Below are positions 24,101 to 27,100 of a stretch of DNA of 64,000 nucleotides, one piece after another. Position 1 is the first letter of the stretch. The number at the start of each line of letters is the position of its first letter. A program made the position numbers. The stretch comes from Escherichia coli (lineage in GTDB: Bacteria; Pseudomonadota; Gammaproteobacteria; Enterobacterales; Enterobacteriaceae): the NCBI RefSeq assembly GCF_017348835.2, contig NZ_CP071375.1; one strand, 5' to 3'.

Positions 24101-27100
24101 GTGCCAGAGCACCCGCCGCGAGCAGGTGGCGTGACCATTTTTTCATTTAACGTCCCCTGTGTTACCTTTCGTTTTATCACGAGCAATAAGCTGGCTGGCA
24201 ATAACCATCACCAGCGACAGCACCAGTAATATGGTTGCCAGCGCGTTAACTTCCGGCGATACGCCGACTTTGACCATCGAATAAATTTTTAACGGCAGAA
24301 TTTCATAACTCGGCCCAGTGACGAACGAAGAAACAACCACATCGTCCATCGACAGGGTAAAGCTTAACACCCAGCCCGCCGCCACCGCTGGCATTGCCAG
24401 TGGCAGAATGATTTTTCGCAGAATGGTAAATTCGCTGGCACCGAGATCTTTCGCCGCTTCCAGCATTCGCACGTCAAAACCTTTCAGGCGCGAATACACC
24501 GTCACCACCACAAATGGCAGGCAGAAGGTGATATGCGAGAACAGCAGCGACCAGAAGCCAAGCTGAATACCCAGCAGCATAAACAGCACCAGCAGCGAAA
24601 TTGCCATCACGATATCTGGTGACATCATTACCACAAACAGCATTCCGCTAACGAACGGCTTACCACGAAAGCGATAACGGTACAGTGCAACTGCCGTCAG
24701 TGAACCGATAAGCGTAGCAAACGTCGCTGAAAACACCGCCATCGTCAATGAATGCTGAGCTGCCTGCAACAGACTGTCGTTGTTCATCAGCAGGCTATAC
24801 CATTTAGTGGTAAAACCCTGCCAGTTGATGCCAAAGCGCGAGCTGTTGAAAGAGTTCACAATCAAAATAATGATTGGAATATACAGGTACGCGTAGATAG
24901 CGGTCATAAAACCGCCGCGAAGCAGTCGACCGATCATTCGAGTTCCACCTTTTTATTCATAAGGCGGGACACTTTCAGGTTTTTGAATTTATTCAATTTT
25001 TTCCTTTCTCCAAAATCTCTCCAAAACTTTTCCCCAAAACAGGACCACGCATTTTACAGCATTTTTATACATGGGTGAGCTTACTAGGACAGAAAAGTAT
25101 TCCAGTTTGTTTACCCATATCGCTTTCCGAATGAGATTTTTGATGTGATTTCTTCGTGTTGAAAAACCACATAATGTGGTATTAGAATTAGCTATCAAGA
25201 TTCACTTTGAATCCGTTTTGAATCCCATTGAACTCAGGAGTGACTATGAAGCGTAAAAGTGTGGCTTTGTTACAAGCCATTGGCTCGGTTATAGCCCTGA
25301 GCCCGACGGTCGTTTCAGCAAATGGCATGCCAGCGAATCCAGTTTCCGCTTTGCGTCAGGATGCTGCGGCTATCAGAGGCGATTTCCAAAAAGCAATGGT
25401 ATCCGTTAACGTTGAAAAGCTGAACAATGCCAGATCAAAAAGAAAGTGAGAACACCAAACTCACTTGTGAATAACAAAAGGATAATGAACTGGTTTCTCG
25501 AGTAATCGAAAATCCAGAGGTCTTAAACAGGGTTTTGGATAGTCCGCAGGTGCGGGCTATTGTTTGCCAGCATTTTCAGGGGCCTGTTCCGCCACCTTCA
25601 ATGCTTAAAAAGTATGATCAACTGGTGCCTGGGCTTGCAAATCGACTTGTTGAGTTGACCGAAAAAGAGCAGGCTCATCGCCATAAAACAGTGGCTGATA
25701 GCATTGATATTGCCAGAGATGGTCAAACAAAGGCTTTTTGGTTGGCAATATTGATCATCTTAGCTGCCACTGTCTTTGGCGTCATGGGGGAGACAGTTCT
25801 TGCCGGAACTCTCGTTTCAATAGATCTTGTTGCATTGGTTACGGCATTTATTGTTGGAAAACATTATTCTAAGCAGGAACCTGATCAAGATTAGTCTCCG
25901 AACCCCGGTTGATGCCGGGGTTTTTACACTAGCAAAGCAATATCAACATTTTTCAGCTGCATTTATTTCGTCAAACAACCAATTTAACCCATTCCTGACC
26001 ACGAGTATCGTTATAACGATCGGTGGTTGCTTGGACTTTATGTCCCAGTAATGTTTTTGTATCAATACCCTGCGCGCGGTACAGTCGTTCTGACAGGGAG
26101 CGTTGTTCATGAAATGTTGGCGGAGTTTTTCCTGCTGGTGGAGTTATCCCAGCCAGATCCCGTGCTTTGGCAAAGTAGTCGCTCAGGTTGTCTTTACTCA
26201 TCGGCTTTGGTTGTTTCTGGTGCCGACTATGGATTAGATATGGACTTAATATTCTGTCTCGGCACCCATCAATAACTTCTTTTAACGTTATCCCAATGGC
26301 ATCACAGCGTAGTGTAAGCGGTAACGCCAGACGCATTCCGGTTTTTCCCTGGGTGATATGCAAGTGTTCGTTCCACACATCTGAAAAACGCATGTGGCAA
26401 ATGTCATCACGGCGCTGACCAGTAACAATCGCAAGAAGCATTGCGTTACGGATAAAGTGTTTTTCAGGCGTTGCGTTGTAAATTTTTTGCCAGTCTTCCA
26501 GGGTGAGCCTGGCTCTAGTTACTTTAGGGATCGGTTTACGGGTAGCCTCCGGAGGATTCCATCCAGGAGGAACTTCCCCTGCATGCTGTGCTTCTTTATA
26601 AATATCAACCCATAATCCACGATTTACTCTCGCTGTGCTGACCATGTCTTTATCCAGCCACTCATCCAGTATTAATGCAAAGTCTCTTACTTCCAGTTCT
26701 TTCAATGGGTGGTTTCCCAGACGGGAAACCAGGTATGCAGCCATTCGGGCTTTTTCTTTGTGAGTTGTAGCTGCAATATCTCCATTTTTCAGTCGCGTGT
26801 CCTGTATTTTCAGATATCGATCAACCCATGCCTTTAATCTGATACCCCGACGCTTTGTTGCTGACGGACTTTCATCAATTTTGCGCATGAAATATTCAGC
26901 CTCTGCTGCAGCTATTCGCTGATTGGCTGTGGAAGCGATTTTTTCTGCCTTACCTTTGTCTGTTCCGAGCCCGTGAAATTTTCCAGTCACAGGGTTTTTA
27001 TACTGGTAGTAAACTCTGCCAGTTCTGCGATCAAATTTTTCGTAAAGTCCGGCTACGTCAGTGCTGTTTTTTCGTGGCCTCGGTGACATGAGTTAAAATC

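Follow-up and report, generated by a model that had tools for sequence, protein, structure and literature searches.

What does the DNA next to potC represent in an Escherichia coli genome whose homology to uninterrupted strains breaks off there, and which of its parts are chromosomal, which are phage DNA and which were added to the phage? We addressed this in a 64,000-nucleotide stretch of contig NZ_CP071375.1 (RefSeq assembly GCF_017348835.2), called the window here, in which the match to strains such as K-12 ends at position 24959, just beyond potC. A reading made from the sequence alone (the sequence-only reading) had placed the left junction of a prophage inside the 3′ end of potB; the K-12 match does stop at 24959, and genes for an integrase and an excisionase lie beyond it. 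We conclude that positions 24934-25970 very probably represent attL of an approximately 50-kb lambdoid prophage of the 'PP_potB' type, with a moron cassette between att and int.

The left part of the query was matched in nearly all of the 5,426 complete E. coli genomes, in most of them only to query position 260. In K-12 and other uninterrupted strains potB abuts potC, and the junction seen in the window was found again in hundreds of genomes. An integrase gene had been proposed beside the junction, and the gene at that place encodes an Arm DNA-binding domain and is followed by an excisionase gene. The features at the junction are as follows.

24934-24959, minus strand: orphaned native potB 3′ end, codons N-K-K-V-E-L-E-stop (K-12 match with one mismatch, at 24952; translation)
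24948-24959, no strand assigned: attL core CCTTTTTATTCA (three-way comparison of attB in K-12, attL in the window and attR in PE164 and RM8385)
24960-25066 (107 bp), no strand assigned: phage P′ arm, common to relatives without cargo
25007-25016, 25018-25027 and 25031-25040, plus strand: three tandem TCTCCAAAAY repeats, candidate arm-type integrase sites (motif scan)
25971-27089, minus strand: lambda-family tyrosine integrase (Pfam Arm-DNA-bind_1, PF09003, 75 bits; Phage_integrase, PF00589, 69 bits)
27058-27327, minus strand: excisionase (Pfam Exc, PF07825, 23 bits, at the cutoff; annotated as excisionase in strain PE164)

The sequence-only reading had proposed an alignment to an uninterrupted pot locus and a search for the matching repeat at the far prophage end. 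The alignment yielded a 12-bp core at 24948-24959, CCTT(T/C)TTATTCA, of which CCTTCTTATTCA is the attB and attR version. The search located CCTTCTTATTCA adjoining the potB body in PE164 and in the O103 strain RM8385, two genomes nearly identical to the window, at 11/12 identity to the window core. The three sites align as follows.

attB (K-12): GAGTTCCA-CCTTCTTATTCA-GCAAACGAG
attL (window): GAGTTCCA-CCTTTTTATTCA-TAAGGCGGG
attR (PE164, RM8385): TTCTGTTG-CCTTCTTATTCA-GCAGACGAG

The window has a single occurrence of the core, where chance would give 0.01; since it is unique there and the junction recurs in hundreds of genomes, it is not a chance pattern. Neither a second copy of the core nor the potB body was found within the window, whose right edge falls among prophage tail genes. 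Base 24952 at attL was T in 7 of the 8 lysogens examined, O157:H7 and UMNK88 included, and C at attB and attR. Because of this difference the attP core is taken as CCTTTTTATTCA, with identity across all three sites limited to CCTT and TTATTCA. The comparison thus suggests CCTTTTTATTCA as the phage attP core, and the crossover would be placed to the left of the variable base 24952. The attR sequence was identical in PE164 and RM8385, and the right junction of the source strain would be expected to read TTCTGTTGCCTTCTTATTCAGCAGACGAG, fused to a potB ending in NKKATEIDD-stop.

Which DNA, then, supplies the end of potB at the left junction? As had been noted from the sequence, the minus-strand frame running into the potC start reads ...FKNLKVSRLMNKKVELE-stop, with a stop codon 40 codons upstream; its own stop overlaps the potC start (ATGA). 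The sequence-only reading had taken this frame, ...SRLMNKKVELE-stop, for a surrogate 3′ end of potB brought in by the phage. The frame does resemble a PotB C terminus, and the codons KVSRLM that come before it are phage-derived. Such an origin is scarcely credible, since 24934-24959 is identical to the K-12 chromosome apart from the core mismatch at 24952, so that NKKVELE-stop is the native terminus and phage DNA enters the frame only upstream, as KVSRLM. No potB body is joined to this junction, and the three-way att alignment ruled the surrogate out at the left end.

The surrogate lies at attR. There potB reads ...YWRASRLLNKK-ATEIDD-stop, the new terminus being encoded by the phage P arm. The proposal that the potB body sits at the far prophage end was borne out in the near-identical genomes of PE164 and RM8385. 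In these the ORF (open reading frame) stays open at near-native length, and PotB is annotated as an intact protein of 287 aa (WP_000799399.1), compared with 285 aa for the native K-12 protein, which ends in ...NKKVELE-stop. The core covers the potB codons L-N-K-K, 5-8 codons ahead of the potB stop. The surrogate end ATEIDD-stop (7 codons including the stop) lies approximately 50 kb from the left junction and was seen by proxy in these two genomes. On this reading, a lambda-family integrase recombined attP with a site in the L-N-K-K codons of potB, leaving the native tail VELE-stop beside potC, with phage DNA beginning at 24960.

We also observed that the phage-derived Ser-Arg-Leu codons directly beyond the core (24960-24975, minus strand) match the Ser-Arg-Leu of PotB with three synonymous differences (TCC CGC CTT versus TCT CGT TTG). 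The attP therefore resembles potB over approximately 21 bp, which is more than the 12-bp core. This likeness could come from constraints on integrase core sites or from an ancestral potB fragment in attP.

Phage 21 and e14 integrate into the 3′ end of icd, and their attP brings alternative terminal codons with it and thereby keeps the gene whole. The prophage described here likewise inserts in the 3′ end of a protein-coding gene and provides its terminal codons. It differs in that only 5 codons are replaced (VELE-stop by ATEIDD-stop) and in that potB stands in the middle of an operon, so that the downstream potCD genes are uncoupled from their promoter.

The lambda attP consists of a core with P and P′ arms that carry arm-type Int sites. 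The integrase found here has the lambda Arm DNA-binding domain, and the predicted arm-type sites are laid out in a comparable way: on the int side, three tandem TCTCCAAAAY repeats lie approximately 59-92 bp from the core start (first bases at +59, +70 and +83), and the P arm at attR has one more copy 127 bp ahead of the core, an arrangement like that of P′1-3 and P1 in lambda. Four matches to TCTCCAAAAY occur in the window, three of them clustered in the P′ arm; the pattern was derived from the same copies that it describes, and the arm-type sites are predicted only. The differences from lambda are the repeat sequence itself and a 900-bp cassette between the arm and int. When a phage-genome collection was searched for relatives of the cargo region that contain attP, two 'partial genome' prophage records were returned, matching the 107-bp arm only.

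The locus itself is a known one. Integration of prophages at potB has been described in Shiga toxin-producing E. coli (STEC) of O157:H7 clade 8 and of O145:H28 (PMC9997748, PMC7067040). The prophage in the window shares with these PP_potB prophages the integration locus, the integrase and att family, and a lambdoid organisation of variable content, and effector genes of a type III secretion system (T3SS) lie at the far end in relatives with the same ends. It differs from the O157-type copies examined, which have no cargo and in which int follows the P′ arm directly; the att core and the cassette are not described in the two papers. As the P′ arm is present in 1514 of the 5426 complete genomes (28%) and potB is a published locus, the junction is common and already described, and is in itself ordinary.

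What sets this copy apart from such relatives is the DNA between the arm and int, where two accessory ORFs had been predicted and were found. Its features are the following.

25067-25966 (900 bp), no strand assigned: cargo insertion (BLAST boundaries against the cargo-less relative L005)
25157-25925, plus strand: two-gene cassette (moron), with 76% DNA identity to Salmonella loci L009-L011 over exactly that span
25159-25188, plus strand: predicted promoter-like site TTGAAA-18-TAGAAT (promoter scan, 10/12 matches)
25246-25449, plus strand: gene for a 67-aa small protein (RefSeq version, from ATG)
25427-25894, plus strand: ancestral gene for a 155-aa DUF2335 membrane protein, broken by TAA at 25472-25474 (codon 16); a TTG-initiated ORF remains at 25535-25894
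25900-25925, plus strand: predicted intrinsic terminator hairpin, a 10-bp stem followed by a T run (-20.5 kcal/mol, z = -4.5, 0/200 shuffles as stable)

The cargo stands after the P′ arm and ahead of the int stop codon, and replaces 33 bp of the cargo-less relatives L005 and L008. The P′ arm is approximately 95% identical to that of the O157:H7 and vB_EcoS-640R1 prophages, in which the int stop codon comes only 33 bp further on. The cargo was detected in approximately 210 of the 5426 genomes, mostly non-O157 strains of the STEC or enteropathogenic E. coli (EPEC) type and pig strains. The lineage of this phage has thus gained a 900-bp insertion between the 107-bp P′ arm and int.

In Salmonella prophages, the homologous cassette is found at the prophage end, behind the tail-fibre genes. 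The limits of the Salmonella homology coincide with the promoter-like site and the terminator, which argues that the cassette is a self-contained moron; as far as sequence organisation can tell, it is an autonomous promoter-genes-terminator unit. The -10 element TATTAGAAT was the same in 6/6 cassette variants and the -35 element in 5/6, and the ribosome-binding site with the start codon, ACTCAGGAGTGAYTATG, was invariant in the six. The cassette order runs from a conserved, predicted sigma-70-like promoter through the 67-aa gene and the overlapping 155-aa DUF2335 gene to the intrinsic terminator. An Rfam search of 24500-27500 returned only a sub-threshold PsrR1 match, which coincides with the terminator hairpin. 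The spacer of the promoter-like site holds a perfect palindrome, CCACATAATGTGG (CCACA-TAA-TGTGG, 25167-25179), at which the Salmonella cassette has CACA-TGG-TGTG; this palindrome is a candidate operator.

The first gene of the cassette encodes a small protein for which we found no match in Pfam, even with E values of up to 10 allowed, or in NCBIfam, PHROGs or PADLOC. Its ATG at 25246 is preceded, 5 nt upstream, by an AGGAG Shine-Dalgarno sequence. The sequence-only reading had described a 73-aa secreted-type ORF here. That ORF exists when counted from the TTG at 25228, and the 67-aa protein does show signal-like features: a KRK n-region, a hydrophobic stretch whose hydropathy over 15 residues is 1.86, and, at VSA|N, a sequence resembling a cleavage site. 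The same stretch is the most conserved motif of the family, with Asp or Glu inside it in 40 of 115 members and a median 15-residue hydropathy of 1.09. Since it is conserved family-wide and most relatives have it in a form too polar to act as a signal peptide, the label 'secreted' is doubtful. Escherichia and Salmonella have close homologues 64-67 aa long. The family profile gathers at least 224 clusters at 50% identity, with proteins of 57-90 aa and the consensus FLxGxGSVLxLxP...SDxxALRxDWxxVGxD, and corresponds to PHROGs of unknown function (phrog_26284-like). An AlphaFold2 (AF2) model of the 67-aa protein, with a predicted local distance difference test score (pLDDT) of 80.6, has a helix-loop-helix form, for which Foldseek found no structural neighbour in the PDB.

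The second gene had been read as a DUF2335-like membrane ORF with only a TTG start. The domain assignment stood: the TTG ORF at 25535-25894 scored 48.1 bits against Pfam DUF2335 (PF10097; cutoff 25), and the DUF2335 protein also matched phrog_3996 ('membrane protein', moron category) at E = 1e-41. The start did not stand, as it is produced by a nonsense mutation. The UMNK88 copy of the DUF2335 gene encodes 155 aa from an ATG equivalent to window position 25427, with its first 23 nt lying within the end of the small ORF. In the window, a G-to-T change at 25472 turns Glu16 (GAA in UMNK88, O45:H2 and O103:H2) into TAA, and relative to the O45:H2 and O103:H2 genomes this is the sole difference within the cassette. 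The apparent TTG-only start therefore results from the stop at codon 16. A test with a 45-mer spanning the site found the TAA allele of the window in 22 of 203 genomes; the other 181 differed by one base and had a coding sequence (CDS) annotated across the site.

Relative to its homologues the DUF2335 ORF of the window is not full-length. Homologues from Escherichia, Salmonella, Pantoea and metagenome-derived sequences have 154-177 aa and an invariant N-terminal motif, V-I-E-N-P-E..L...L (n=18). The 119-aa product of the TTG ORF would be without this VIENPE motif and would keep the Pfam domain and both C-terminal transmembrane (TM) helices, which were identified by hydropathy and are the sole confident part of the AF2 model. 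The window copy thus resembles PF10097 and phrog_3996 in scoring above the gathering threshold and in its C-terminal two-TM hairpin, and differs from them in the interruption at codon 16. Judged on its reading frame, it is either a pseudogene or, at best, the source of an N-terminally truncated product. A sequence-profile search of the PDB with the DUF2335 alignment gave nothing under E = 0.4, and the AF2 model was left out of the fold search because of its pLDDT of 57. We found no functional study of DUF2335 or PF10097 in the literature; a 'DUF2335 (phospholipase)' label in a paper on type VI secretion (T6SS) was set aside, as it probably refers to a different DUF.

RefSeq annotates both genes in the forms that the window presents, so the 119-aa TTG-start protein could be taken as real and functional, retaining as it does its Pfam domain and both helices, and the 67-aa ORF, with the signal-like features listed above, as a Sec-secreted peptide. 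We consider this improbable. The codon at 25472 is a sense codon within an annotated 155-aa gene in 181 of the 203 genomes, the invariant residues sit in the N terminus that the TTG form has lost, and the TTG start is without a convincing Shine-Dalgarno sequence. For the small protein, the acidic residues and low median hydropathy of the family motif speak against secretion, as does the member from Xylella phage Xfas53, in which the motif is preceded by 20 polar residues.

The gene pair recurs in several genomic contexts. A small gene overlapping the start of DUF2335 is also found in nin-region morons beside hok/gef, higBA and hicAB; Pseudomonas phage MD8 has the pair between int and the tail fibres, and Xfas53 has it too. 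In a Pantoea prophage it occupies the slot between cI and N, which rexAB fills in lambda. There, the small gene upstream of DUF2335 (L012, 3784-4065) was missed by the gene finder, and small members of this family are probably under-annotated. In strain A8 (L007, 2809-3366) the small ORF is kept and DUF2335 is replaced by an oppositely oriented ORF6N antirepressor gene; an antirepressor of the same type comes after the cassette in Salmonella L010 and L011. The small gene is thus retained where DUF2335 has been lost, as in the window, or replaced, as in A8.

Such a history might also be that of a functionless hitch-hiker in decay, with no role for phage or host: one cassette gene is already knocked out in the window and in 22 genomes, an antirepressor stands in place of DUF2335 in A8, and the cassette is missing from most prophages at the potB site. 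This carries a low probability in our judgement, though somewhat above that of the TTG-start reading, because phages of Enterobacterales, Pseudomonas and Xylella have kept the pair with its overlap, protein lengths and motifs down to approximately 21-38% identity. Neither the -10 element of the promoter nor the ribosome-binding site varies, and the small-protein family runs to at least 224 clusters at 50% identity.

The conserved autonomous pair, its recurrence at sites that temperate phages use for lysogen-expressed exclusion, toxin-antitoxin or conversion genes, and the loss of DUF2335 alone favour a membrane exclusion or toxin-like reading, which we put forward tentatively. By analogy, the cassette might act in phage exclusion or in an abortive-infection or toxin-like manner, the DUF2335 protein serving as membrane effector and the small protein partnering or regulating it. 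The pair might equally tentatively be regarded as an uncharacterised two-component module of temperate phages, that is, a new superinfection-exclusion, abortive-infection or toxin-antitoxin-like system. Lysogen-expressed exclusion genes are exemplified by lambda rexAB, P22 sieB and T4 imm/sp. Like morons and exclusion genes, the cassette is a promoter-gene-terminator unit that is present or absent between otherwise similar phages, and its products are small membrane-type proteins; it would be a moron expressed in lysogens, with products acting at the inner membrane. It has no sequence or profile similarity to Rex, Sie, Imm or Sp, or to the PADLOC families. A match to the PADLOC model PD-T4-6, seen in 10 of the 18 DUF2335 homologues (best E 2.6e-4), was rejected as evidence of defence, as the 155-aa query scored 15 bits and the model represents a Ser/Thr kinase protein.

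Several observations weigh against the attL and cassette reading as a whole. The attL and attR cores are identical at 11/12 positions only, and attR lies outside the window, the right junction being drawn from the near-identical genomes of PE164 and RM8385. The promoter scan overall did no better than shuffled sequence (3 sites found, 1.9 expected), and the AF2 model of the DUF2335 protein is poor, its TM hairpin alone being confident. Among four distant small-protein members checked, the downstream gene was DUF2335-like in one and unrelated in three. Among the PADLOC profiles there was no convincing match to a known defence family, and the 67-aa protein had no hit.

The insertion also bears on the genes that it separates from the rest of their operon.

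24143-24937, minus strand: potC, intact (ORF; PotC WP_000580316.1 annotated in PE164)
23100-24146, minus strand: potD, intact (ORF)

The prophage separates potC from potA and potB. In the operon, potC overlaps the potB stop codon and has no known promoter of its own. With approximately 50 kb of phage DNA between potCD and the potA promoter, the insertion might silence potCD and inactivate polyamine uptake, which would make the junction a loss-of-function lesion of potABCD. We regard this as unlikely, albeit the most serious of the alternatives weighed here. Both genes are intact in lysogens, with protein sequences identical to those of K-12, and a lesion of high cost would not sit well with an att arm found in 28% of the complete E. 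coli genomes. The Shine-Dalgarno sequence of potC lies in the retained native DNA, transcription of int is directed at potC, and on the minus strand no T run follows the cassette hairpin. Severed from the potA promoter, potC and potD would need transcription from phage-side DNA or read-through from int. The promoter scan established no potCD promoter; a minus-strand promoter-like site aimed at potC (25198-25171) was rejected, since conservation of its -35 element fails in UMNK88 and the scan as a whole did not exceed shuffles. On the other side of potD, cobB directly precedes it in the window, in PE164 and in O157:H7 (22945-23099); this interval holds ymfA in K-12, UMNK88 and A8, and in K-12 also ycfZ.

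The wider prophage closely resembles that of PE164. Positions 21700-29000 are 100% identical to this strain, and further into the prophage the identity is 99.94%. PE164 has two IS3-family insertions (IS, insertion sequence) that are absent from the window (at 30976-30978 and 59418-59421), one of which splits the tape-measure gene. This difference indicates that the window comes from a close relative of PE164 and not from PE164 itself, and, with both copies absent, decay of its prophage has gone less far than in the closest database match. Beside attR, at the far end, near-identical strains carry T3SS effector genes (L004, 1-5300; L014, 459-4427), namely four NleG/DUF1076 genes, espW and a 'bfpT-regulated chaperone'. 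With effectors beside attR and the cassette beside attL, cargo stands on both sides of attP in the circular phage. After xis comes a minus-strand ORF for an 823-aa 'exonuclease' (27389-29860), and beyond it PE164 is annotated with ydfD, dicB and a racR/YdaT-family toxin region; this content makes the early region Rac-like and not lambda cI-like. Downstream of the antiterminator region, two tRNA genes lie at 40752-40827 and 40928-41004, called by ARAGORN as tRNA-Met (CAT) and tRNA-Arg (TCT); RefSeq calls the first tRNA-Ile in PE164.

For annotation, these results mean that the potB-like tail beside potC is not to be called a gene, that potB is intact at the other end of the prophage with a phage-encoded tail, and that the 119-aa 'DUF2335' CDS is what a nonsense mutation has left of a 155-aa gene. 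The sole mildly novel element of the locus is the uncharacterised small-protein/DUF2335 cassette, which is half-inactivated in the window. Two questions of modest value follow for the biology of these lysogens and phages, namely how potCD are transcribed across 50 kb of phage DNA and what role is played by so widely conserved a cassette. Should the tentative exclusion or toxin-like reading be true, the repeated loss of DUF2335 alone would be the usual decay pattern of a toxic partner.

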